The position numbers and the translations under genes are program-made. From positions 32,827 to 96,826 of the forward strand of contig JAKSNW010000004.1 in NCBI GenBank assembly GCA_024405895.1: DNA of 64,000 nt. Reading direction: 5' to 3'. Positions 37,457 to 48,918 of the stretch are shown here, one piece after another. The DNA is from Paludibacteraceae bacterium. GTDB lineage: Bacteria; Bacteroidota; Bacteroidia; Bacteroidales; Paludibacteraceae. The notes under the pieces are model-generated. The model was not told the origin of the DNA. It did no database searches and saw nothing but the letters and a program-made list of their open reading frames with translations. The stretch's first letter is position 1. Each line of letters begins with the position of its first letter.

Positions 37457-37529
<73 letters not shown>

Positions 37530-37531
37530 CG

Positions 37532-37635: not shown

Positions 37636-38388
37636 ATGAAGAAGATTCTTCTGCTCATCCTATTTATCGGATGTGCATTTTTCGCAAGCGCAAGAGACAT
37701 TTGTCCTGGCTACCAAGGTATCGACATCTCCGATTACTCAGGCAAGGTTGTATGGACAGAAGTAGCAAAGGACACAAACATTCAGTTTGTCTATATGCTT
37801 GCCACAGTGGGCGGTGACTCAGTCAACCCAGTTTTCAAATCATACTTAAGTGGCTGCAAAAAAACACGTCTAAAAGCAGGAGCTTACCATTGCATGACAA
37901 CTACAGCCACCATTGAAGAGCAGTTTCAAAATTTTGTTAGCCACGTACACAAAGACAGTATAAAACTTGTCCCGATGATCTACGTCTCAGAATGTGAATA
38001 TTGGACCGCCGACGAAGTAATCGACAGTTTGAAAAGATTCTGCGATCTGCTTGAGGCGCATTATGGCAAGAAACCTGCCATCTACGCCCTCAATGCCATC
38101 TACAACCGTTACCTCACACCAGTTTTCAATGACTACGCCCTTTATATCATCAAATATTCAGATGTCCGTCCTATCATCCATGGTGGCAACGATGGTATCC
38201 GCATGTTATGGCAATACACCAACAAAGGCAAGATTCGTGGCTTCGAGAAACCCGTCAACCTTGTAAAACTCTGGACAGCCCGCATGCTTGAACTAAACCT
38301 CATCATCCCGAAAAAATACGTAGTCAACCACAAAGCCCCCGCCAAAAAGAAGATAACAGCAAAACACCACATACATAATAAAGGCTGA
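37636..38388 (+). CDS. glycoside hydrolase family 25 lysozyme/muramidase-like protein
   Basis: The ATG at 37636 gives MKKILLLILFIGCAFFASA (signal peptide), then GYQGIDISDYSGKVVW...FVYMLAT...AGAYH, typical of GH25. The track start at 37630 is a TTG. Confidence 0.75.
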   Translation: MKKILLLILFIGCAFFASARDICPGYQGIDISDYSGKVVWTEVAKDTNIQFVYMLATVGGDSVNPVFKSYLSGCKKTRLKAGAYHCMTTTATIEEQFQNFVSHVHKDSIKLVPMIYVSECEYWTADEVIDSLKRFCDLLEAHYGKKPAIYALNAIYNRYLTPVFNDYALYIIKYSDVRPIIHGGNDGIRMLWQYTNKGKIRGFEKPVNLVKLWTARMLELNLIIPKKYVVNHKAPAKKKITAKHHIHNKG

Positions 38389-38409
38389 CCTCGTTAGAAG
38401 TCAGCCTTT
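38380..38409. terminator. hairpin between the convergent GH25 and helicase genes; left bracket of the accessory block
   Basis: 10-bp perfect stem AAAGGCTGAC / GTCAGCCTTT with a 10-nt loop. It overlaps the GH25 stop codon, and the T tracts are weak on both strands. Confidence 0.5.
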
Positions 38410-38427
38410 GGTGTTTGTAGACGTTTA

Positions 38428-40491
38428 CTACTGATTTTTAGAAGAGACTTCACCGAAGTCCTGAAATTTGATTCGTAAAACCAAGCTAGCAACAGACTTT
38501 GGGGCTTTTTCTCGTTCTTTTTTTAACATAGCATCAAACTCGACTTCTGGCAGATCCGAGTTGAAAGCTTCTATCAAATCGTTTTCTTGCGTTGACTCAA
38601 GTGTTAGTTTCTTACGTTTCATCAACATACGCATAATATGAATACCCTTGTCATACTTAGGACGAACTTCAATAAGTTTCTGCATAAGATTGAGTCCTGG
38701 GTCCCCAATGTGCAACTCATTAAGCACTGCTACCATATAAAGGACTTTGGCATCGGGAGTTGACATTTCAAAATTTTCACCTAAAAGACAATTCACCTCA
38801 TCGGACTCATGGTAACGCTTCAACATAGCTAATGCACGAGACTTCACAAAAAGTGCCTCTGAACAATAATGTTTGCTCAGCACACGATTGGCAAAATCGA
38901 GTGCAGTCTCATACTGTCCGGCATACAGACAAAGCATAGCAGTCAAGAACTCTGTAGTCCAATGATGAGCAGAGAATAGTTCCTTCGGAACCTCTTTAAT
39001 ACAATCTATCAAATGCTCGTCACATACCACAGTATCAAGGAAACGCTTTGCCTGCTGCACTGCTTCTTTGATATCTCCTTCTTGAACTTTTTTGTTTACT
39101 AACATCAAATACTGTCTTGCAGCTTCATCGTAGTCATATTTTCTCAGAGATTCAAAGACAGCCCTACCGCTTTCTATTTCATTATTAATAAGTCGTTTAT
39201 CATTATACCCACTAGCATAAGTTATAATCTCCCTACTAGTATGAGCATATTGTGGAATAACATCATTAGACAGAAACAAACCATCTAACGAACGAACACG
39301 ACTTAAAGCCACATAGAGTTGCCCTGCAGCAAAAAGGCCACGACTTAGATCCAATGACATCTTGTCAAAAGTCATACCCTGACTTTTATGAACTGTGATA
39401 GCCCATGCCAACTTCAGGGGATATTGGGTAAAAGTTCCAGTTACCTCCTTTTTAAGTTTACGTGCTTCACGATCATACTCATAGCTTACAGATTCCCAGG
39501 ACACACTTGGCACCACATAAACATTTCCGTCGTTGATTTCAACATGTATCTCATCTTTGACAAGCTTTACAACCTTACCAAGAGTTCCATTGGCCCAACG
39601 TTTATTTGGATCGTTGCGTGTAAAAATAACCTGAGCACCGACCTTTAAACGAAGATTCAACTCTACCGGTAATTTCTTTTCATCGAACTTACCTGAAATC
39701 GTTCCCTCATAAACAAACTCCTCCAAGTCAATCTCTGCAAGATGCTGCTGGTTTATTATTTCGGCAGTCTTATTGAGAGAAGTAAGAGTAATGACCATAC
39801 CATCCTTGCTATCTGGTTGAGCCACCCGTTGATTAAGAAGCATGATATCCTCCGGGGTCACCTTATTCATGCGCACATTCTCAAGAACACGGAGAAACTT
39901 TGGATCATCGTCTTGACGATAGACTTTCCTAAATTCAATCTTTACAAGACGCATGCGTTTGAAAACATCGGCCTTATAAAAGAAAAAATCGTTAGTTTTA
40001 TAAATATCGCGAAGCAATTCGCTCTCAGCGCCTTGTCTTACTACAGGAGGTAATTGAAACATATCACCAACAAAGATCATCTGTTTTCCACCAAAAGGCT
40101 GAGAATTACGGAGTGCCTTGCGTAAAGTATAATCTATAGCATCGATGATATCACATCTCACCATCGAGACTTCATCAATGATTATGGTGTCTGCATGCAA
40201 AAGAGTAAGTATTCGTTCACGGTTCAGTCGTCCTAATGTATTTGGCACGCAAACCTCCATAGGAAGCCCAAAGAAAGAGTGAATCGTATCACCCCCAGCC
40301 AAGATGGCAGCAACTCCTGTTGGGGCCAAGGTGATGAATTGCTTGTTGACCATCTTCTGAACATTGCGCAAGAAGGTGGTCTTGCCGGTTCCCGCACGAC
40401 CCGTGAGGAAGAAACTGCTGTTGGTGTTAGCAATGAGTTCGTAAGCGAACTTTTGCATTGGGTTTTGGTTATCAATCTGCATCTGTTCCAT
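38428..40491 (-). CDS. PIF1/RecD-like SF1B DNA helicase with a C-terminal helical-repeat (TPR-like) extension
   Basis: ATG at 40491 (MEQMQIDNQ...). It has Walker A (GRAGTGKTT), Walker B (IIIDEVSMV), FVGDMFQLPPV, AITVHKSQGMTFD and LYVALSRVRS. About 240 further residues are predicted helical. Confidence 0.85.
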   Translation of the reverse strand: MEQMQIDNQNPMQKFAYELIANTNSSFFLTGRAGTGKTTFLRNVQKMVNKQFITLAPTGVAAILAGGDTIHSFFGLPMEVCVPNTLGRLNRERILTLLHADTIIIDEVSMVRCDIIDAIDYTLRKALRNSQPFGGKQMIFVGDMFQLPPVVRQGAESELLRDIYKTNDFFFYKADVFKRMRLVKIEFRKVYRQDDDPKFLRVLENVRMNKVTPEDIMLLNQRVAQPDSKDGMVITLTSLNKTAEIINQQHLAEIDLEEFVYEGTISGKFDEKKLPVELNLRLKVGAQVIFTRNDPNKRWANGTLGKVVKLVKDEIHVEINDGNVYVVPSVSWESVSYEYDREARKLKKEVTGTFTQYPLKLAWAITVHKSQGMTFDKMSLDLSRGLFAAGQLYVALSRVRSLDGLFLSNDVIPQYAHTSREIITYASGYNDKRLINNEIESGRAVFESLRKYDYDEAARQYLMLVNKKVQEGDIKEAVQQAKRFLDTVVCDEHLIDCIKEVPKELFSAHHWTTEFLTAMLCLYAGQYETALDFANRVLSKHYCSEALFVKSRALAMLKRYHESDEVNCLLGENFEMSTPDAKVLYMVAVLNELHIGDPGLNLMQKLIEVRPKYDKGIHIMRMLMKRKKLTLESTQENDLIEAFNSDLPEVEFDAMLKKEREKAPKSVASLVLRIKFQDFGEVSSKNQ

Positions 40492-40495
40492 AGTT

Positions 40496-40999
40496 TTATT
40501 GTTCAATTGCTGGAAGTATTTGAGTAAGACGAGTATTAAAGTCACTATCCAAGAAACTCTTGTAGCAGCCATTGACGATATTTTTTGCCTGTTCTTCCAG
40601 TTGCTCTTTCGGCATGGACGAGCGCTGCGTCTTCAGTATGCCCTCAAAGAAATTGCGTACCATAGTCTCCGATTCCTGGCGTATGAACGTCTCGCTGCGG
40701 AATATCTTGTCATAATCGCGTTTCTGAACAAGTTCCAGTCTGGTGCCGTTGAAGGCATAGACTTCAATGCTGTCGATGTATGTGCAGTTGTGGTAAAGTC
40801 CGACCTTCTCCACGATGACGATACGCTCGCAGAATCGCACGCCTTTATAGTAACGATGTCCGTATCCGCTTTCGTACTCGTCGCAGATGAACATCTTTTG
40901 ACCTTCGTTCCACATAGGGATGTGAGCTCTTGTGTTGCCAAATGTTGGCAAGAACTTGTCGAACAAGTCTTTGTTAATCGCTTTTGTGAGTGATGCCAT
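40496..40999 (-). CDS. hypothetical protein, paralog of the next gene upstream
   Basis: 167-aa ORF with an ATG start. Its stop is 4 nt before the helicase ATG. It shares the pattern YYK..R...R..V......G....T....I..FA.NG with the 147-aa neighbour. Confidence 0.7.
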   Translation of the reverse strand: MASLTKAINKDLFDKFLPTFGNTRAHIPMWNEGQKMFICDEYESGYGHRYYKGVRFCERIVIVEKVGLYHNCTYIDSIEVYAFNGTRLELVQKRDYDKIFRSETFIRQESETMVRNFFEGILKTQRSSMPKEQLEEQAKNIVNGCYKSFLDSDFNTRLTQILPAIEQ

Positions 41000-41056
41000 G
41001 TCTAGTCAGTTTTTTCTTGGTTAGTAACTAAGGTTGTCTGTTTTCTGTTCTACAGC

Positions 41057-41500
41057 TTATCGGAGCATCTTTTGCTGTGTCTCTTCAATCATGGCTCTTG
41101 AGAAGTCGAGCAATTGACTGTCAGCAATGACGCTTCCCATGGCCTTTGCCTGACCTGCGAGAAAGTCCTTGAGCATGATGATGCTTTGCTCCTTCGCGAA
41201 TTGCTCAGAGAAGCATCGCCAGTTGCTGCCACCCCAGAACTTTTGGGAGATGATGTTTGCCTTCTGACCGTTCCAAGCGAAGAGCGTGATACCGTTCAAG
41301 AAGGTGTGAACGTAACCTTCGCCGAGGTGGTAGTATACGGCCAATCGGTCGGAGAGACGGATTGCCTTGTAGTAGGTGTTGCCAGCTGCGCTGGTGTAAC
41401 CAAGAGTGAGAAACACGTTCTTCTCTGGGTTGTAGGTGATAGAACTGCCCGAGAGGGCTGGGAGTGCCTTAGCGGCTACGAGTGCGAGTGATGTATTCAT
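41057..41500 (-). CDS. hypothetical protein, paralog of the 167-aa gene
   Basis: 147-aa ORF with an ATG start. The core (GNTYYKAIRLSDRLAVYYHLGEGYVHTFLNGITLFAWNGQ) aligns by eye with GHRYYKGVRFCERIVIVEKVGLYHNCTYIDSIEVYAFNGT. Confidence 0.7.
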   Translation of the reverse strand: MNTSLALVAAKALPALSGSSITYNPEKNVFLTLGYTSAAGNTYYKAIRLSDRLAVYYHLGEGYVHTFLNGITLFAWNGQKANIISQKFWGGSNWRCFSEQFAKEQSIIMLKDFLAGQAKAMGSVIADSQLLDFSRAMIEETQQKMLR

Positions 41501-41607
41501 CTGCGTGTCGTTTTTGGGTTTGTTTGTTTAGCGGAATAGGCCGCCACCTCTGTTTTGAAAAAATTAAATATTGTATAAACAAATCCAGCTCTCTCGGAAT
41601 TGCGGTG

Positions 41608-41680
41608 CAAAATTACAGTGTATTTCTCCGCCGACCTAAGAATTTCCAAAGAGTATTGGTTCTTGTATATTTGGAACCAA
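41608..41680 (-). promoter_or_regulatory. promoter P3: -7 box TAATTTTG plus the upstream inverted repeat TTGGTTC-N11-GAACCAA
   Basis: The -7 box is at 41608..41615 (CAAAATTA on plus). Half-sites are at 41656..41662 and 41674..41680, within a perfect 10-bp inverted repeat GTATTGGTTC/GAACCAATAC. The near half-site starts 41 nt from the box. Confidence 0.6.
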
Positions 41681-41698
41681 TACCTTGTTCTTGGAGCA

Positions 41699-42115
41699 TT
41701 ACGCAGCGAACCGTTTCTTGCGGATCGTTTCCATGCAACGTCTTGTGCCGACAATGGAAAAACGAATTGCGGTCAGGTCCTCTGTACGACCATTTTTCTT
41801 ATGGTTTGCTTGTGCCTGGCGTTTCTCGACAATGCGTCTTAGAATGCGGTTTTGGACTTTGGTAGATTGTGATTGAGATTTGCTGTTGAGATTCAGGAAA
41901 ATCCCGTCCAGCACTTCCGTTTCAATCTTTTTGGTTGTGACATCACACACCTCTTTCGCTGATGCAGAGCGATATCTCCTGGTTTTCTCGATTCTTTCCC
42001 AATTTTGGTTGGTTTTGTGACAGGCGTTTGCTGCGCTCTGTTTCTTCTTTGCGTTGTCTACTTTTTGGTTCATTGTCTTCATTGTGTCTTTGTTTGCGTT
42101 TGACTTTTGTTTCAT
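41699..42115 (-). CDS. small, very basic hypothetical protein
   Basis: 138 aa from the ATG at 42115 (MKQKSNANKDTMKTMNQK...). It is K/R/N/Q-rich and has its own promoter P2 upstream. Coding status is uncertain. Confidence 0.4.
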   Translation of the reverse strand: MKQKSNANKDTMKTMNQKVDNAKKKQSAANACHKTNQNWERIEKTRRYRSASAKEVCDVTTKKIETEVLDGIFLNLNSKSQSQSTKVQNRILRRIVEKRQAQANHKKNGRTEDLTAIRFSIVGTRRCMETIRKKRFAA

Positions 42116-42187
42116 AGTGTCTTGATTTATTGTCCCCCACAAAAAAATGCAGCGCCAACTCCGAGGTGGTGCCGAAGTTTGACGCTG

Positions 42188-42260
42188 CAAAAGTAGTACG
42201 TTTATTGCTAATAGAACAATGTATTTGCAACTATAATGGTACCTGTAAAATTGGAACCAT
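42188..42260 (-). promoter_or_regulatory. promoter P2: -7 box TACTTTTG plus the upstream inverted repeat ATGGTAC-N11-GAACCAT
   Basis: The -7 box is at 42188..42195. Half-sites are at 42236..42242 and 42254..42260, with the same 41-nt offset. The 18-nt block TTTGACGCTGCAAAAGTA is identical to P1. Confidence 0.6.
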
Positions 42261-42274
42261 TTAAATACAGTGAA

Positions 42275-43315
42275 TTATCTAAATAATTGTGAGAATTTAA
42301 TCTTATCTTTTATTTCCCAATTTGAAGTGTTGCCATTCACATTCGAATGTTTATTGTTGTATTCTTGATACCATAGAATAACATCGCATAATTGAAGCGC
42401 ATAGCTCTTTAGCAAATATGATGTGTTACCTACATTCTTTAAATATTCTTGAAGGTGCTTGTTCTCATCATCATCATTGGACGAAGTATGAACATCAGAA
42501 CCTGCAGTATGGATCATATGAATCATGTTATCTTGTATAATCTTTGGGAAGACCGTATGATTGACTTCAACAACAGTCGTTTTGTTTTCATCTCGTCCAT
42601 ATGTAACTGGATAACCACTTAGAATAAGATTAGAACATTTTAAGTTTATTTTTTTTTGCCGCGGAAGAAGTCCTTTTTCTATCATGGATCTGAAAATATA
42701 CTCTACGATTTGACGTACTTTTTTGTATTTATCGTTATAATCTTTATTATCAAGTTCAGGAAAATGTATTTCGGATAACAAGTCAGTAAGATAAATATCA
42801 GCATCTGTGTCAATACCTAGATTTGTTATTGCTTCAAATACAGTTTTGTACATTTCATGTATCTTCAAGTCTGCTGAGCGTGATTGACGAGTTGTATACC
42901 TAATACGACGGAATAGAAGATCTCTGTCTGTATTCTTGTCATAAAATGTTTTTTCCCAATCACCATCCCATACATTTCTTGTCTCAGGAATAAGTTCTTT
43001 GATGTCGGTCTCTGCCTGACCCGATAATACATACCACGGAATAAAACGCTGCCCATGGCAGATATTGGTGATAGCGTTCGTCGCATTAATCAGAAAGCGA
43101 GTCGCATTGTCCACACTGTCTTTATGATGCTTGCATTTTGCATCAAGTATAATGGCAGACCAGCGATTGTGGTCACGTTTAAGAGCAGCTTCTGCGTCAT
43201 CCCAACAGTCAAATGCGACTAATTCAAGACCATATTTTGCTGCTTCCATTGGGAATGTTAATCTAACTTCAGGATCATCTTCAACCCATAAAACTTGTAT
43301 GTATTCTATATTCAT
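42275..43315 (-). CDS. response-regulator receiver domain fused to an unrecognised C-terminal domain
   Basis: 346 aa. The N-terminus is CheY-like (IQVLWVEDDPEVR...WSAIILDAKC...WYVLSGQ). Residues from about 140 to 346 are helical with no family I can name. Confidence 0.8.
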   Translation of the reverse strand: MNIEYIQVLWVEDDPEVRLTFPMEAAKYGLELVAFDCWDDAEAALKRDHNRWSAIILDAKCKHHKDSVDNATRFLINATNAITNICHGQRFIPWYVLSGQAETDIKELIPETRNVWDGDWEKTFYDKNTDRDLLFRRIRYTTRQSRSADLKIHEMYKTVFEAITNLGIDTDADIYLTDLLSEIHFPELDNKDYNDKYKKVRQIVEYIFRSMIEKGLLPRQKKINLKCSNLILSGYPVTYGRDENKTTVVEVNHTVFPKIIQDNMIHMIHTAGSDVHTSSNDDDENKHLQEYLKNVGNTSYLLKSYALQLCDVILWYQEYNNKHSNVNGNTSNWEIKDKIKFSQLFR

Positions 43316-43335
43316 TTTATAATATTATAAGTGTT

Positions 43336-43363
43336 AAGGCCAGAGGAAATATCCTCCGGCCTT
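43336..43363 (-). other. intercistronic hairpin between the kinase and receiver genes
   Basis: 12-bp stem AAGGCCAGAGGA / TCCTCCGGCCTT with one mismatch and a 4-nt loop. There is no good U tract on the minus strand. Confidence 0.5.
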
Positions 43364-43376
43364 TATTTTCAAAATG

Positions 43377-45932
43377 TCAAAGTGATAACACAGTATTTGT
43401 ACGTTTGAATGTTAGTACATATTTTACTGTGTAGTCCTCGTTTGGTGACGATATGATTTTCACATCTCCATCATATTCCTTCATTATAGAAACAATCTCA
43501 GAGCAACCAATGCCATTATGACCATTGATGTTGAGTGAAGTGCTGAATCCATACTCCAAAATGTTTGATGTGTCAACCCCATCTGGTATGGATTTTCCGT
43601 TGTTTTCTATGGTAAGTACCATGTCCATACCTGTTGCTTCCCAAGAGAACTTAACCTTGTAATCCTTATTTAGAGGGTTATTAAATCCATGAGCGACAGC
43701 ATTTGCAATGATGTTGTCAAAGATTCGAGTAAGAGCTCTTTTGGGGAAATAAAAAGTGTTGATAGGTTCACCTTTTCTCAAAACAAATCCACTTTTATGA
43801 AAGTCTATTGGAGAACGATTTGTAATAAAATTCTCCCAACCTGTAAGAGCGGAAAATCCCAACCAACCAGCCTTGTTTGATTGAATATATGAGTTTATGA
43901 ACTCTATAGGTTCTATGTATTCTGGTTTACCGAAATCCTCTTCTACATCGGATATCGCAGCCAGTTTAACTTGTATGCTCTTCAACCGACTTTCTAGGTA
44001 AGCAAATGCATCAGCAACAGTTAGGTCATTTATCTCAGATAGTCTGTCGCTATCATCAAGGAAACCACTTTGTCTTCTTCGGCAATTCATCAATGCATTA
44101 AACATAGACCCAAAGGAAGAAAGAGATTGTGTAAGAGCATGTTTCCTCAGTCTCACAGACTTTCGGTAATTTTCATATTGGATCACCCCTTCTTGTTTCT
44201 GTTGCTCTATGGTTTCGTAGAGTTTTTTTTGCATTCGTTCGTGTTGTTGAAGTGTGGCTTGCTTAAACACCTCCAAACTGAATTTGAATGTGTCACTCGG
44301 TGCATTAAGAATCTCGCCTGAAGACTGGGACCCTGAACGAGGAACTGCAGCTTCAACTTGTTGTTGCAGGATTGCCTCAAACTCAAGTTTCCAATTAATG
44401 TCCTCGTGATAGAGAGGAATAACTTTAATTTTGCCAAGAAGGTTGTTGTCAAACTTTCTCATGAGTTTTCCAACACTCATTGCTATAATTTGTTTAACAA
44501 CATAGTCTTCTAATAGAAGCAAGGTCGCTGATGCAACATTAGTACTTACAACTTTAAAGCAACAAATACGTGAAGAAACAGCTACACCGGTCAGGGGGAC
44601 TTCAGATAAATAACCCACCAAAAGTTTTTCACCATTGGAACACATGAAAACGCAAGGTGTTGTAACAACTGCAAAATCTTCCTTTTTTCCGCTATCGTAT
44701 ACGGGTGATAGGTCTGCAACAGAAATGTTTGCATACTTAAACGAAGTCGTTAGGTTTTTAATGGTTACAGCAGGCATAGCATCTTTTGTAGCATGAGTGT
44801 TTAGATCTGCAATAGCCAATACATTGTTCAAGCCTATAGCAAATTTAGGTTTTTCCAACAGGTAGTGCGCTGGTAAAAGTATGTCTGCATCAACCTTGTT
44901 GTAAGGTATTCTCTTGCAAATGTCCGCATTTCCCTTTATCTCAGTATGCAGAATTGCCTCCGTAAATCTTTCAACGTCAAAACGTTTGAGGTTGGATTTT
45001 ACGCCATAGGCACGAGTTGCAAACGTTGCATCAGCCATAACAACCCCAGCGAACTCGGATTCAGTCTTATTTTTGTCAAGACACATGACAAAAAATGAGC
45101 CGTTAGATGTACTGAAAATGTCAGAAGGTAACTGTACAATTGCCTCAAGAGACTTGTCTCTTACAATCATCTTTCTGAAATCTTGCTCAATTTCTCCCAT
45201 GGCTCCTAAAGTGTGCGGTGATACAATGGCAATCATTCTGCCAGTGGGTCTCAAAGCAGCATATAGGTTATGAAGTGATGAATCAAATACATCACAATGA
45301 CTAAGAATACAGTCAACAGATTCAAATGATGGGTGTGGCATCTGTAAAGATTCCGGACTCTTAGGGTATGCTATGTCATAGTCTATACCATTTGCTTGAA
45401 GTCGAATGTTACAAAAAGCCCAAATCCTAGGAGAAGAGACATTACCAGAAATTTTGCATTGCGGAAATCTTAAAGCAAGATCACCATATTCAACATAAGG
45501 AATATAAAGTTTCTCTTCTTCTTCATAATGCAATAATTTAGTCATTAAATCGCATAACTCATTAGAATATTCAAAGAGTGAAATGTCAAGCCACCGCCAT
45601 TCATCACGAAGCGAGAAAATGTGGTTGATGGTTTCTTTATGATGAGAAACAAGATATTCCAATTCTTGTTCTGTGAGTATGTTTTTCTTGAAGGAATCTA
45701 TGAAATAAATCAACTCATTAAAAAGAAGTCCTTCCTTTGGTTCTCCGTTCACAACAGACCATAGTTTGGCAAGAAGTTGTTGGTGTGGAGCATCAACAAA
45801 ACCTAAGGGTAGGTCTACTTCTGGAATCGGCGAATTCAAATCCTTGTACTCTGGTGAGGCCTCCAATTGAGCATTTACTGCGCTTACATACTTGGCTACG
45901 ATAGCCTCTACTGAAAAGTAGTTGTTTTGCAT
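43377..45932 (-). CDS. cytoplasmic histidine kinase fused to an HsdM-like (degenerate) N6-methyltransferase and a TRD-like module
   Basis: First ATG at 45932 (MQNNYF...); the track start at 45953 is a TTG. MTase-like segments: LRPTGRMIAIVSPHTLG, LEAIVQLPSDIF..FFVMCLDKNK and VVMADATFATRAYGVKSNLKRFDVERF. A TRD-like region follows, then RLRKHALTQSL (candidate phospho-His) and GHKL boxes (NIIANAVAHG, ENNGKSIP, GHNGIGCSEI). Confidence 0.8.
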   Translation of the reverse strand: MQNNYFSVEAIVAKYVSAVNAQLEASPEYKDLNSPIPEVDLPLGFVDAPHQQLLAKLWSVVNGEPKEGLLFNELIYFIDSFKKNILTEQELEYLVSHHKETINHIFSLRDEWRWLDISLFEYSNELCDLMTKLLHYEEEEKLYIPYVEYGDLALRFPQCKISGNVSSPRIWAFCNIRLQANGIDYDIAYPKSPESLQMPHPSFESVDCILSHCDVFDSSLHNLYAALRPTGRMIAIVSPHTLGAMGEIEQDFRKMIVRDKSLEAIVQLPSDIFSTSNGSFFVMCLDKNKTESEFAGVVMADATFATRAYGVKSNLKRFDVERFTEAILHTEIKGNADICKRIPYNKVDADILLPAHYLLEKPKFAIGLNNVLAIADLNTHATKDAMPAVTIKNLTTSFKYANISVADLSPVYDSGKKEDFAVVTTPCVFMCSNGEKLLVGYLSEVPLTGVAVSSRICCFKVVSTNVASATLLLLEDYVVKQIIAMSVGKLMRKFDNNLLGKIKVIPLYHEDINWKLEFEAILQQQVEAAVPRSGSQSSGEILNAPSDTFKFSLEVFKQATLQQHERMQKKLYETIEQQKQEGVIQYENYRKSVRLRKHALTQSLSSFGSMFNALMNCRRRQSGFLDDSDRLSEINDLTVADAFAYLESRLKSIQVKLAAISDVEEDFGKPEYIEPIEFINSYIQSNKAGWLGFSALTGWENFITNRSPIDFHKSGFVLRKGEPINTFYFPKRALTRIFDNIIANAVAHGFNNPLNKDYKVKFSWEATGMDMVLTIENNGKSIPDGVDTSNILEYGFSTSLNINGHNGIGCSEIVSIMKEYDGDVKIISSPNEDYTVKYVLTFKRTNTVLSL

Positions 45933-45964
45933 AGAAAAATGTTTTTGTTTCAATTTTGACGCTG

Positions 45965-46036
45965 CAAAAGTACTTTATTTTTACAGTGCTTGTAACCAAA
46001 ATTATCGATATATTGGTTCCTATATATTGGGAACCA
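45965..46036 (-). promoter_or_regulatory. promoter P1: -7 box TACTTTTG plus the upstream inverted repeat TTGGTTC-N11-GAACCA(T)
   Basis: The -7 box is at 45965..45972. Half-sites are at 46013..46019 and 46031..46037 (the last base is a mismatch). The offset from the box is 41 nt. Confidence 0.6.
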
Positions 46037-46041
46037 TTCCT

Positions 46042-47127
46042 TTAGTTTGTTTTAGGATATAAATCAGCTAATTCATGTATACGTTGCGCCATTTTGTGGC
46101 GAATGGTATCTGGTGAAATAATCTCTAATCCTGCTCCCATCTGTATTATATGCCCATAGAATTCGTTGTTCGGCTCGACATCAACCGAGAACTCTGCATA
46201 CTCTCCATCGTCATACAAGCCAAAAGGTTTCACAACATTATAACTCTGATGAAGTGGCTTTGTGTCCATTAGTTTAAATATATATAATGTTCGAGCGCGA
46301 ATAATAATATGTTCTTTCTGGACATCCTTCATGTGGCTTACGCCAACAATATCCTTGAAGAACTCATCATAGAAATGCTTTGGTGCTGGTACATATTTTA
46401 CTTTTGATCTCTCACGAGGTTTTGATTGTATTCTATCAAGAGCTATGTTATAGCCATATACCGGTTTCTTTCCTTCAGCATGACCAAACAGATGCCATCT
46501 GCCGTTATATTCCTTCAGATAGTGCGGGTGAAACAATAGCATAACAGATTCCTCCTCAAAAGGCTTATAGTTTATCTGTAGTACCTTTTTATTAGTAATC
46601 GCTTCATATATGAAAGGCAGAAATTCTATGTTTGTCAAAATACGGTCAAGACTAGCATTGATTACCAACTCTCCTTTCTGTCGCCGAGCCTTTATGTCCA
46701 ACAAATCCTGACAATCCATGAAGAAGTATTCCAACCAAGATTTTGGGAAGAAACCAGCAGAATCCTGACAGAACTTCCAATACTGTCGAAGGTTATTGAT
46801 AGCCTTAGCGTTGCGCATGTCAGCGAGAGGATCATTGTCTTTGCCTATATAACGGAAGCATTTGTTTCGGTTGTTGCCTTCCTCTTCAAAGCAATCGTTG
46901 CCTACCTTCTCGCAAATGGCTTTCTTCAATATGCCAACAGTCTTCTTAAGTTCACCATATCCTTCACAGTTAGATAGGTTGGATGGTAGTTCATTTACAG
47001 AACAACCTAATCTGTCGGCCATAATATTAGCATAAGTAAACCACCGGCGACTTATTAACCACCGATAGGTTATTCTTGAAAATTCGGCTTTATAACTGTC
47101 GCCGTCAAAGAGGTTACTACGTTGCAT
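46042..47127 (-). CDS. WYL domain-containing putative transcriptional regulator (paralog B)
   Basis: 361 aa. VLQINYKPFEEESVMLLFHPHYLKEYNGRWHLFGH...YNIALDRIQSKPR fits the WYL-domain signature, and a C-terminal WCX-like region follows. Confidence 0.8.
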   Translation of the reverse strand: MQRSNLFDGDSYKAEFSRITYRWLISRRWFTYANIMADRLGCSVNELPSNLSNCEGYGELKKTVGILKKAICEKVGNDCFEEEGNNRNKCFRYIGKDNDPLADMRNAKAINNLRQYWKFCQDSAGFFPKSWLEYFFMDCQDLLDIKARRQKGELVINASLDRILTNIEFLPFIYEAITNKKVLQINYKPFEEESVMLLFHPHYLKEYNGRWHLFGHAEGKKPVYGYNIALDRIQSKPRERSKVKYVPAPKHFYDEFFKDIVGVSHMKDVQKEHIIIRARTLYIFKLMDTKPLHQSYNVVKPFGLYDDGEYAEFSVDVEPNNEFYGHIIQMGAGLEIISPDTIRHKMAQRIHELADLYPKTN

Positions 47128-47282
47128 TTTATTAATATTCTTAGTGAGGTGTTTTTATATTTTTCTTGTATCGATGTTAGAATCTTGTTCGTTGTAGGAT
47201 TCTTCCCTTATTGGCAGGAAAACCAGACGCCAGTTTTACCATTCCCCATTAATGCTCCTTTGATTCTATTTAGATTTTCCAT
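47128..47282 (-). pseudogene. possible decayed XRE-type HTH ORF with an in-frame TAA
   Basis: Minus-strand translation from the ATG at 47282 gives MENLNRIKGALMGNGKTGVWFSCQ*GKNPTTNKILTS... . It resembles the Bacteroidota XRE N-terminus NRIK..L.E.GKT.KWLAEQLGK.P.TVSKW. The stop at 47208..47210 sits where Leu is expected. Confidence 0.3.
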
Positions 47283-47304
47283 TTTAATAAATTAATGTTG
47301 AGTG

Positions 47305-47312
47305 CAAAGATA
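47305..47312 (-). promoter_or_regulatory. -7 promoter box (TATCTTTG on the minus strand)
   Basis: CAAAGATA on plus, upstream of the XRE-like remnant and WYL gene B. Confidence 0.35.
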
Positions 47313-47361
47313 CTAAATAATATTGTAACTACAGAACGCAAATGCTATAACGTTTCTTCGA

Positions 47362-47574
47362 TTAATTCTTGTGGTGATGTGTGTTAGAGTTCTTCAAAGT
47401 TTTCTGAGATTCCTTCGTCGATAAACTCTTCGAAACGATTTCCTTTGCATCGGAAGCAGATACCATTATCAATGTGTCAATATTCTTGGAAATATCCAGT
47501 TCCACCACATCTACTACATGGTGTCAAGTGCACTATTTGAAATTCGTCTCTCTCTAATTGTTGAGTGTAGGACA
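47362..47574 (-). pseudogene. small CxxC-CxxC zinc-ribbon-like ORF interrupted by an in-frame TGA
   Basis: My translation gives MSYTQQLERDEFQIVHLTPCSRCGGTGYFQEY*HIDNGICFRCKGNRFEEFIDEGISETLKNSNTHHHKN*. The TGA is at 47476..47478. The second Cys pair lies after the stop in the same frame. Confidence 0.45.
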
Positions 47575-47642
47575 TACCATTACAAGTTAATGATACCATT
47601 ATATAGCATTGATTTTAAGACACTTTATTTCCATTCCTGATA

Positions 47643-48728
47643 TCATTTCGTGGATTTTTTTTGATAATGTTGGTGCATTCTTGCTACTTTCGTTGCTATA
47701 GTTTGACGCAGGATATCGGGCGACACGACTTCGTAGGCTTCTCCCATCTGCAACAAGCGGCCAACGAACTCCTGGTTCGGACGAACGTGCAACTTGATTT
47801 CGCCATAGCACCGACCATCGTGCTCGCCGAAGTCAACAACAGTCTCCTGAGAGTGGTGAATACGTTTGGTTGTAGTGAGATTGAACATGTACGAACTGTG
47901 AATGCGCACAACAACGTCTTCCGGCTTGCTATTCGGGGCGATGCTCACACCATAGATATCGTTAAAGAATTTCTTGTAGTAATCGGGCGAGGCCGAGACA
48001 TATTTCTTGCCATGACAATATCTCGGTTTTCCCTGGATGCGGTCGATGGCTATATTAAAGCCTTCATGAGGGGCATCAGTAACATCTTCTTCTACATAGC
48101 CGAAGAGAAACCATCGGAGGTTAAACTCTTTCAGATACTGAGGATGAAACGTCAGCGTAAGAATCTCTTCGTATTTAGCATTGTACCTGATGGTAAGCAC
48201 CTGACGGTTGACGATGGCTTCGTGCAGGAAGGGGAGCAGTTCTATGTTGGTAAGGCTGTGGTTGAGACTGCTGCTAATGGCCTCCTTTCCCTTTTCCTTT
48301 CGGTGTCTTATCTCAAGCAATTCTTTGTCGTCCTGAAAATAGTGTTCTACCCAAGAAAAAGGAAAAAATCCGGCTGAGTCGACACAGAACTGAACGAAGC
48401 GTTTGAGGTCTTCTCGCGACTTTTGCTCACGAAGAGACCTAAGCGGATCGTCTGTCGGCCCCACATATCTATACGTTTTGTTTTTGTTGTTGCCTTTTTT
48501 CTCTATGGCATTTTCACCTAATTGTTCGACCAGCCATGAAAAGGCTTTCTTGCATTCGCCATAACCGTCTCGGTTGCTAATGGGTACCAGCTCGTCACCA
48601 TCCCAATCGGGATCTTGGCGGAAGATATCAGCATAGGAGAACTCTCTACCCGACATCAGCAAATTGTAGATGATGGCGGTATATTTCGATTTTTGGCCTT
48701 TTCCTAAAAAGCAATTACTCTCTGACAT
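47643..48728 (-). CDS. WYL domain-containing putative transcriptional regulator (paralog A)
   Basis: 361 aa and collinear with paralog B over the full length (VLTIRYNAKYEEILTLTFHPQYLKEFNLRWFLFGY...FNIAIDRIQGKPR). Confidence 0.8.
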   Translation of the reverse strand: MSESNCFLGKGQKSKYTAIIYNLLMSGREFSYADIFRQDPDWDGDELVPISNRDGYGECKKAFSWLVEQLGENAIEKKGNNKNKTYRYVGPTDDPLRSLREQKSREDLKRFVQFCVDSAGFFPFSWVEHYFQDDKELLEIRHRKEKGKEAISSSLNHSLTNIELLPFLHEAIVNRQVLTIRYNAKYEEILTLTFHPQYLKEFNLRWFLFGYVEEDVTDAPHEGFNIAIDRIQGKPRYCHGKKYVSASPDYYKKFFNDIYGVSIAPNSKPEDVVVRIHSSYMFNLTTTKRIHHSQETVVDFGEHDGRCYGEIKLHVRPNQEFVGRLLQMGEAYEVVSPDILRQTIATKVARMHQHYQKKSTK

Positions 48729-48813
48729 AAGTTTTAATTATGCGTGATTCTTTTTGTAAGGCTGAATGTAGAACTTTTATTTTCTAACACTTACGTTCCA
48801 CAACTCAACTTCG

Positions 48814-48821
48814 CAAATATA
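48814..48821 (-). promoter_or_regulatory. -7 promoter box (TATATTTG on the minus strand) upstream of WYL gene A
   Basis: CAAATATA on plus, about 86 nt upstream of the ATG at 48728. Confidence 0.35.
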
Positions 48822-48886
48822 CTTATTTTTCTTAAATAGCGAAACAATTATACACAAAATTTATCTGCGTTAGACTTTTATAAAGC

Positions 48887-48918
48887 AATGGCTGACTTCG
48901 TTTCCGAGGCCAGCCATT
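48887..48918 (-). terminator. hairpin downstream of clpC-like; right bracket of the accessory block
   Basis: 14-bp imperfect stem AATGGCTGACTTCG / CGAGGCCAGCCATT with a 4-nt loop. Its first 16 nt match the 38380 hairpin at 14 of 16 positions. Confidence 0.5.

Follow-up and report, generated by a model that had tools for sequence, protein, structure and literature searches.

What does a bacterial receiver domain control when the protein that carries it ends in a domain of no recognised kind? The question is raised by a gene on the minus strand of a 64,000-nucleotide stretch of DNA from a Paludibacteraceae bacterium (assembly GCA_024405895.1, contig JAKSNW010000004.1, positions 32,827 to 96,826; this whole stretch is referred to below as the window, in whose numbering coordinates are given unless a related locus is named). 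The gene (42275-43315, minus strand), delineated as an open reading frame (ORF) and characterised through its homologues and AlphaFold2 models, encodes a response regulator of 346 residues, hereafter the RR, in which a receiver (REC) domain is followed by an unannotated C-terminal domain. An earlier reading of the DNA, the original prediction, had described the latter as an unrecognised helical output loosely recalling DUF4145/HEPN-like modules and had proposed that, if the domain were an effector, phosphorylation would be its firing switch. The analysis presented here leads us to regard the RR, with confidence that is about evenly balanced, as the effector half of a Detocs-like defensive two-component module in which a HEPN-like effector is gated by phosphorylation.

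A conserved family of receiver proteins with an unannotated output domain

The RR reading frame belongs to a genuine, conserved gene and did not arise by chance, since at least 574 homologues are present in a 90%-clustered protein database (none of them with a precomputed Pfam domain), since the C-terminal domain by itself defines 580 clusters at 50% identity (E ≤ 1e-3 in an exhaustive HMMER search with a profile of the domain), and since NCBI holds one entry that is 100% identical, named 'hypothetical protein' and derived from a Paludibacteraceae metagenome-assembled genome. In almost all of the 580 clusters the domain lies at position ~140-330, behind a receiver. The family is common in human-gut and rumen Prevotella, Segatella, Muribaculaceae and Bacteroidaceae, and the 48 related loci from different GTDB species whose neighbourhoods were compared belong to Prevotella, Segatella copri, Muribaculaceae, Bacteroidaceae, Alloprevotella and Barnesiella, a few bins being labelled otherwise. 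A tblastn search of the PLSDB plasmids gave no match to the RR.

The region singled out in the original prediction (42275-42898) corresponds to residues ~140-346 of the RR, and the three peptides quoted there all fall in the C-terminal part of the protein. One chance match aside, the RR has no Pfam, NCBIfam or PADLOC match at E ≤ 0.1, and the same is true of Pfam for 24 closer relatives and of PADLOC for 34 relatives. The C-terminal domain was thus rightly called unrecognised, there being no match to any known output domain in these three collections.

The receiver domain and its cognate kinase

The N-terminal half of the RR is a receiver domain, divergent in sequence and complete in its phosphotransfer chemistry. 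In the AlphaFold2 model of the full-length protein (42 homologues; predicted local distance difference test, pLDDT, of 88.5), residues 1-145 (42881-43315, minus strand) adopt the (beta-alpha)5 receiver fold, and comparison of this model with the PDB by Foldseek retrieved only receiver domains, including those of PorX, DctD, FixJ, PhoB and KdpE (E 5e-6 to 2e-3; template modelling (TM) score 0.62-0.74, normalised to the target). The residues required of a receiver are present, namely an acidic pair (E12/D13/D14), the phospho-acceptor Asp58 (codon 43142-43144), Ser98 and Lys127, and they are retained in the family at large: counted, like all residue conservation reported here, on 146 representatives of clusters at or below 50% identity, Asp58 is kept in 113 of 118, Ser or Thr at position 98 in 121 of 122, and Lys127 in 118 of 124. 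The RR itself has no match to the Pfam Response_reg family (PF00072) at E ≤ 0.1; when 128 diverse family members were scanned singly against Pfam (out of ~160 sequences scanned in all), Response_reg was found below threshold in nine, with a best E of 0.0053. A motif specific to the family, R113-x2-W-D-x-D-W, is located in the alpha4-beta5 region, the face through which receivers usually dimerise and control their outputs.

Directly upstream of the RR gene is that of its cognate sensor histidine kinase (43377-45953, minus strand; 858 residues, or 851 by the NCBI start), and this adjacency is found in 47 of the 47 related loci in which it could be evaluated. The kinase, in which Pfam recognises N6_Mtase (E 3.6e-10) and HATPase_c (E 3.3e-8), consists of a degenerate N6-adenine-methylase-like N-terminus, a variable middle region, an H-box (R601-x2-K604-H605) and the HATPase_c domain. 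Within the kinase alignment K604-H605 is invariant and the N and G boxes are conserved. The methylase motifs, on the other hand, are decayed, with motif I and motif IV (NPPY/F) degenerate in most homologues, where SHCD, CD.. or APKS is found and TPPF or APPY only occasionally; in the kinase of the window, motif I is lost and motif IV reads SHCD. The methylase-like part, given this degeneracy, is therefore most simply taken for a sensor rather than an enzyme. PADLOC matched the kinase to type I methylases only, with none for the signalling part. The sensor kinase also diverges faster than its partner, with 28% identity to the protein of the related locus L001 as against 45% for the RR. Variability is high in the stretch that joins the methylase-like part to the H-box, which in some homologues (P0122 and P0132) carries long acidic repeat insertions. 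A likeness of this middle region to HsdS-like target-recognition domains was a sequence impression with no Pfam support and is not claimed.

Also significant are the few members of the family in which the phospho-acceptor has been lost. Asp58 is absent from five of 118 representatives, and the three of these with a readable neighbourhood are all encoded without a separate kinase. One (P0237; L011, 798-3725) is a single fusion protein of 975 residues comprising a methylase-like sensor, a degenerate receiver, the HEPN-like domain and a cold-shock domain (CSD); a second fusion of the methylase-like sensor to the receiver and HEPN-like domains is seen in P0179. The other two Asp-less proteins both have GmrSD immediately downstream, P0262 (L014, 1144-2160) being preceded by a WYL gene and P0218 (L067, 6001-7005) by a type I restriction-modification system. 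Loss of Asp58 that tracks loss of the kinase is the direction that a real His-Asp relay predicts, the sample being a small one of three. Together with the adjacency of the kinase and the conservation of the phospho-acceptor residues, it fits the suggestion of the original prediction that phosphorylation may be the firing switch.

Structure and conserved residues of the C-terminal domain

Residues 146-346 (42278-42880, minus strand) are described here as a DUF4145/HEPN-like domain, on the basis of conserved Arg, Glu, His and Asp residues, a recurrent DUF4145 signal and weak Foldseek matches to HEPN proteins. Modelled alone by AlphaFold2 (pLDDT 87.4; predicted TM score 0.86), the domain is mainly helical, as had been foreseen, with one beta-hairpin at residues ~237-251 and a disordered loop right after His276. 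Its conservation is concentrated in three family motifs, l-R-x-[ILV]-[ILV]-E-x-[ILV]-F-R, [ILV]-[TGAS]-[NG]-x-x-S-H-[TS] and Q-L-C-D-x-I-x-W, and within these on a small number of polar residues: Arg201 (codon 42713-42715) is kept in all 139 representatives that could be counted, Glu205 (codon 42701-42703) in 138 of 140, the other two having Asp, His276 (codon 42488-42490) in 145 of 145, and Asp311 (codon 42383-42385) in 111 of 144, with Glu in a further 17. Arg201 and Glu205 form an R-x3-E pair on one helix, and the Arg sits 75 residues before His276. The invariant Arg, Glu and His and the usual Asp look catalytic. Many relatives of 390-430 residues have in addition a C-terminal tail of ~70 residues with an S1/CSD-like OB fold (for example, residues 335-387 of P0194), which points to a single-stranded nucleic-acid substrate.

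Is the C-terminal domain a HEPN derivative?

A DUF4145-like HEPN derivative is the best-supported identity that we infer for the domain, from homology that is sub-threshold throughout and does not establish it. DUF4145 (PF13643) is the most recurrent Pfam family among the 128 singly scanned members, with matches in 12 (best E 0.0029), followed by Response_reg in nine and by three OB families of S1/CSD type that are related to one another, S1CSD-TOTE-2 in five, OB_RNB in four (best E 3e-5) and Rho_RNA_bind in two, unrelated families being limited to two members each at most. This signal is calibrated internally, because Response_reg, which is similarly sub-threshold, is independently confirmed by structure. 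In all three of the DUF4145 matches that were inspected, profile positions 39-84 of 88 fall on the helix that ends in N-x-x-S-H, and an alignment of the family consensus (E ~0.3) reaches profile positions 10-83, the R-x3-E helix included. Foldseek comparison of the isolated domain with the PDB placed 13 HEPN proteins among the top 50 matches (7ae6, 7ae9, 8xdj, 8yuf, 1wol and 2hsb among them), all of them non-significant (E ≥ 1.1, probability ≤ 0.35, TM ≤ 0.53); 7AE6 has been reported as the nearest structure to the DUF4145 domain of RAZR, whose activity as a HEPN-type RNase has been demonstrated experimentally.

The features shared with the DUF4145/HEPN clade are a helical domain, an R-x3-E helix, a later N-x3-H motif and, on the long helix that comes next, an acidic residue that is conserved, as well as the occurrence in defence-island or restriction-modification contexts. 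According to the 2013 census of HEPN proteins, the DUF4145-like clade includes a family, c2405, with a 'conserved H but lacks R', which is like the RR family in that the His is kept and the Arg is lost. The likely c2405 protein of E. coli CFT073 was located in the tcpC island (L017, 22572-23744; C_RS11400), and CRRLLE, LTNKGVHA and VADLL in this protein correspond to the three motifs of the RR family in the same order. C_RS11400 is annotated as a 'ComEA family DNA-binding protein', a RefSeq name that covers only its tail.

A number of observations weigh against this identification or do not decide it. The best DUF4145 match, that of P0262, scores 18.1 bits against a Pfam cut-off of 23.1, which no member exceeds; its E of 0.0029 is not significant given the ~160 sequences scanned, and the RR itself and 24 closer relatives have no DUF4145 match. 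The family consensus, whether the insert that separates its two conserved helices is kept or removed, matches DUF4145 with E 0.15-0.35 only. Foldseek E-values for the isolated domain are all ≥ 0.7, with TM ≤ 0.53, and searches of the PDB by sequence were empty whether the query was the profile of the whole family, a wider C-terminal profile or the member most like DUF4145; the top matches, a talin helical bundle for example, were due to chance. A Foldseek search of the viral BFVD models with the isolated domain likewise returned nothing significant. The collinearity of the three motifs with the c2405 family gave an hhalign score of 18.5 (P 0.064), as compared with 18.0 and 17.8 for reversed controls, and seven of 40 block-shuffled controls scored 18.5 or more; since the score is no better than that of such controls, it is not taken as evidence.

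A further objection concerns the defining motif of HEPN proteins, Rx4-6H, on which a claim of membership for the domain would fail. The canonical Arg is absent family-wide, positions -4 to -6 relative to the His being occupied by N/G, T/G/A/S and I/V/L, and the RR, like its subclade, reads HTAGSDVH, in which even the Asn at -4 is replaced by Gly; the missing Arg remarked on in the original prediction is accordingly a property of the whole family. The domain differs in this respect from RAZR (PD-T7-4), which uses R146 and H154, since in the RR family the 4-8 residues that precede the His include no Arg, and it differs from the DUF4145-like clade in the ~45-residue insert with the beta-hairpin that lies between the helix of the R-E pair and that of the His. 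Of the likeness first proposed, then, what stands is that DUF4145 is the top recurrent family (12 of 128) and that roughly one in four of the top 50 structural matches, none of them significant, is a HEPN protein; what does not is any match above threshold.

A second aspect of the original prediction, that no common response-regulator output is evident, held throughout. No helix-turn-helix (HTH), winged-helix, LytTR or other DNA-binding family was found by Pfam or NCBIfam in the RR or in more than 160 relatives, nor were GGDEF, HD or other common outputs, and Foldseek found no DNA-binding fold for the isolated C-terminal domain. A confident match to a DNA-binding output, which would have made the protein an ordinary transcriptional regulator, was obtained neither from the family scans nor from the structural comparison.

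Gene order and genomic context

On the minus strand of the window the order is two WYL-WCX genes, the kinase, the RR, a gap of 775 nucleotides, two small paralogues, a PIF1-like helicase and a hairpin. The WYL-WCX regulators are paralogues of 361 residues each, encoded at 46042-47127 (Pfam WYL and WCX; PADLOC WYL, E 1e-18) and 47643-48728 (the same Pfam families; PADLOC WYL, E 1e-17), both on the minus strand; each has an N-terminal region of ~165 residues with no Pfam match, and in most related loci there is a single copy. A WYL gene is found upstream in ~40 of the 48 species loci and precedes the kinase in most. The WYL-kinase-RR order is kept at L005, where the RR is only 26% identical, and at L012 (25% identical) the kinase-RR pair is kept and is preceded by a protein of 190 residues with no recorded Pfam match. 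Tandem duplications were noted in a few loci, with the arrangement kinase-RR-kinase-RR in L034 (3-7038) and, in L056 and L065, a further kinase gene that follows the RR.

Downstream of the RR stop codon, the A-rich gap (41501-42274) contains only one, implausible, ORF and no RNA recognised by Rfam. It is followed by genes for small protein 1 (41057-41500; 147 residues) and small protein 2 (40496-40999; 167 residues), neither of which matches any family and which look paralogous to each other, and by that of the helicase (38428-40572; Pfam PIF1, E 1e-32), which has a TPR-like tail. All three are on the minus strand, and a strong terminator-like hairpin (38380-38409) closes this downstream module of 38428-41500. 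Across the 48 species loci the helicase follows the RR in 24 and two small proteins do so in six, and the small-protein/helicase module may serve the system as a fourth component that is optional.

The neighbours of related loci include type I restriction-modification with ApeA-HEPN, an OLD-family ATPase, TIR/SEFIR proteins, DndB, RmuC, reverse transcriptase and GmrSD, a defence-island context. The whole module of the window is contained in a block at ~38400-48900 with a G+C content of 36-39%, as compared with 43-50% in the flanks, and this block is bordered by a tRNA-Lys(CTT) gene (37457-37530, plus strand), an arrangement that would fit an island acquired by horizontal transfer. The part of the island region that was examined showed no integrase. 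Housekeeping genes, for Lon, an aminotransferase-like protein and ClpB, flank the low-GC block.

A duplicated operator-promoter cassette

The regulatory sequences of the locus are duplicated. Cassette 1 (45955-46036, minus strand), upstream of the kinase and RR genes, comprises the palindrome TGGTTCC-N9-GGAACCA (46014-46036) and the 18-mer TACTTTTGCAGCGTCAAA (45955-45972); cassette 2 (42178-42259, minus strand), just 3' of the RR stop codon and preceding the two small-protein genes and the helicase, has its palindrome at 42237-42259 and the 18-mer at 42178-42195. The palindrome, in the form TGGTWCC-N9-GGWACCA, occurs in only these two copies in the window against an expectation of 0.01, in each case ~42 nucleotides upstream of the identical 18-mer, which fits TAnnTTTG. 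The TAnnTTTG element is a promoter element of Bacteroidetes. A duplicated layout of the same kind, with a different palindrome, is present in L001 (7270-7327 and 11261-11318). As an identical cassette precedes both operons, and as the layout is repeated in L001, the kinase-RR and small-protein/helicase operons are probably co-regulated. Cassette 2 lies at the upstream end of the 775-nucleotide gap and would give a long 5' leader.

The WYL-WCX proteins are likely to be the operator-binding factors, by analogy with BrxR and CapW. In the BREX and CBASS operons that these two regulate, as here, the WYL-WCX gene is immediately upstream and a palindromic operator is found at the promoter; the present locus differs in its cargo, a kinase paired with a REC-HEPN-like protein, and in having two tandem WYL paralogues. 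A connection of WYL proteins with HEPN nucleases exists elsewhere, WYL1 being an accessory protein of the HEPN RNase Cas13d.

A proposed mechanism and its alternatives

In the mechanism that we propose, the input to the kinase would be its degenerate methylase-like domain together with the fast-evolving middle region, the signal presumably being foreign DNA or its modification state. The kinase would then autophosphorylate at His605 and the phosphoryl group pass to Asp58 of the RR, whereupon phosphorylation of the receiver, probably through receiver-driven dimerisation, would pair two HEPN-like domains. HEPN nucleases generally need a composite, dimeric site, and the C-terminal domain offers an active-site-like set in Arg201, Glu205, His276 and Asp311. 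The most likely output would be RNA cleavage leading to growth arrest or abortive infection, with the WYL-WCX proteins most likely repressing both operons through the duplicated palindromic operator. Beyond a cognate kinase and a receiver with intact chemistry, these are steps that we infer. The fully specified form of this proposal, an undescribed immune two-component system in which an inactivated methyltransferase-like kinase reads foreign DNA, by its sequence or its modification state, and fires an Arg-relocated HEPN RNase carried on a receiver, is put forward only tentatively, as a possibility about which we are doubtful. In that form the system would be widespread in gut and rumen Bacteroidales, with kinase-less pseudo-receiver versions partnered with GmrSD, and would give phage defence both its first HEPN nuclease gated by phosphorylation and its first kinase that senses DNA.

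Three other explanations have to be weighed. The one that survives best, although we consider it somewhat unlikely, is that the domain is a catalytically dead HEPN-like or novel helical adaptor that, once phosphorylated, controls a partner (the helicase, GmrSD or a WYL protein) or binds nucleic acid or a nucleotide. The missing canonical Arg speaks for such a domain, Arg-less HEPN families such as that of the c2405 row of the census being listed as probably non-canonical, and downstream enzymes that could be its partners are both frequent and variable, the helicase in half of the 48 loci and GmrSD or RmuC in others. The invariance of Arg201, Glu205 and His276 over 146 representatives, however, exceeds what is usual for a binding surface, and the three-gene core has no constant fourth gene, hence no other effector that is always present.

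The main rival model, in which the RR is an ordinary transcriptional regulator with a novel DNA-binding output that binds the palindrome and so controls both its own operon and a target operon, is in our judgement improbable. The duplicated operator could be a candidate RR binding site, a point that counts against the proposed mechanism: identical cassettes before both operons, repeated in L001, are typical of an autoregulated two-component design, and the helicase operon that would be the target follows in 24 of the 48 loci. Yet half of the loci are without this operon, the Asp-less, kinase-less variants adjoin GmrSD, and the operators vary from one locus to another, the catalytic-looking Arg, Glu, His and Asp remaining invariant. 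That no DNA-binding family or fold was detected for the C-terminal domain also argues against this role, for which there is, moreover, an adjacent candidate in the WYL-WCX proteins, members of a class that is known from defence loci to bind operators of this kind.

The last explanation, a housekeeping signalling pair unrelated to defence that controls, for example, DNA methylation or metabolism, agrees with the absence of a PADLOC match for the family and is nevertheless very improbable in view of the patchy distribution in low-GC islands beside a tRNA gene, the restriction-modification, OLD, TIR, DndB, GmrSD, RmuC and reverse transcriptase neighbours, a WYL-WCX regulator typical of defence loci, and a sensor that evolves much faster than the RR.

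Comparison with known systems

Detocs, the closest parallel to the proposed phosphorylation-gated module, is an anti-phage system composed of a kinase (DtcA), a buffer receiver (DtcB) and a receiver-effector protein (DtcC), in which defence needs both the phospho-His and the phospho-Asp and the effector domains are modular, being PNP, restriction endonuclease (REase), TOPRIM or transmembrane domains (Rousset et al. 2023, bioRxiv 10.1101/2023.01.24.525353). The two have in common a histidine kinase and a response regulator with an effector rather than a DNA-binding output, encoded together in a defence context; that the acceptor of DtcC is also D58 is a coincidence. In contrast to the TPR sensor of DtcA, the sensor here is a degenerate N6-methylase-like domain, and unlike Detocs, with its standalone buffer receiver, the window and the loci L001-L013 have none beside or between the kinase and the RR. 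Furthermore, a DUF4145/HEPN-like effector is not listed in the Detocs paper, and a WYL-WCX protein is a near-constant partner here. PADLOC, in a release that was not checked for Detocs models, gave no match for the signalling part of the kinase or for the RR.

A receiver that controls an enzymatic rather than DNA-binding C-terminal domain is also found in response regulators of the PorX type, with PglZ, phosphodiesterase or GGDEF outputs. Chains of PorX, a Bacteroidota protein, are the top Foldseek matches of the full-length RR model, a likeness of the receiver only, since TM is 0.29 when the whole model is compared and the outputs are unrelated. No fusion of a receiver to a HEPN domain is described in the 2013 HEPN census, where 'receiver' occurs only in another context, and no description of the WYL-kinase-RR gene combination or of a REC-HEPN fusion was found in the literature that could be searched. 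A figure legend of the DefensePredictor report mentions a predicted HATPase+REC system, of which the text gives no detail.

Implications

The main uncertainty in the proposed mechanism concerns the putative nuclease activity of the C-terminal domain. If the domain should instead be a DNA-binding or adaptor module, the family would still represent a new and large class of response-regulator outputs. If the proposal is correct, the Detocs principle would be extended to a methylase-derived, DNA-reading sensor and a HEPN-like effector, and the RR would provide a testable case of receiver phosphorylation assembling a composite HEPN active site. The domain would then be a HEPN-like variant in which the His is kept and an invariant Arg-Glu pair is placed on a different helix, an arrangement relevant to the ways in which HEPN catalysis can be reconstructed, and a probable role would be assigned to an unannotated family of at least 580 sequence clusters.

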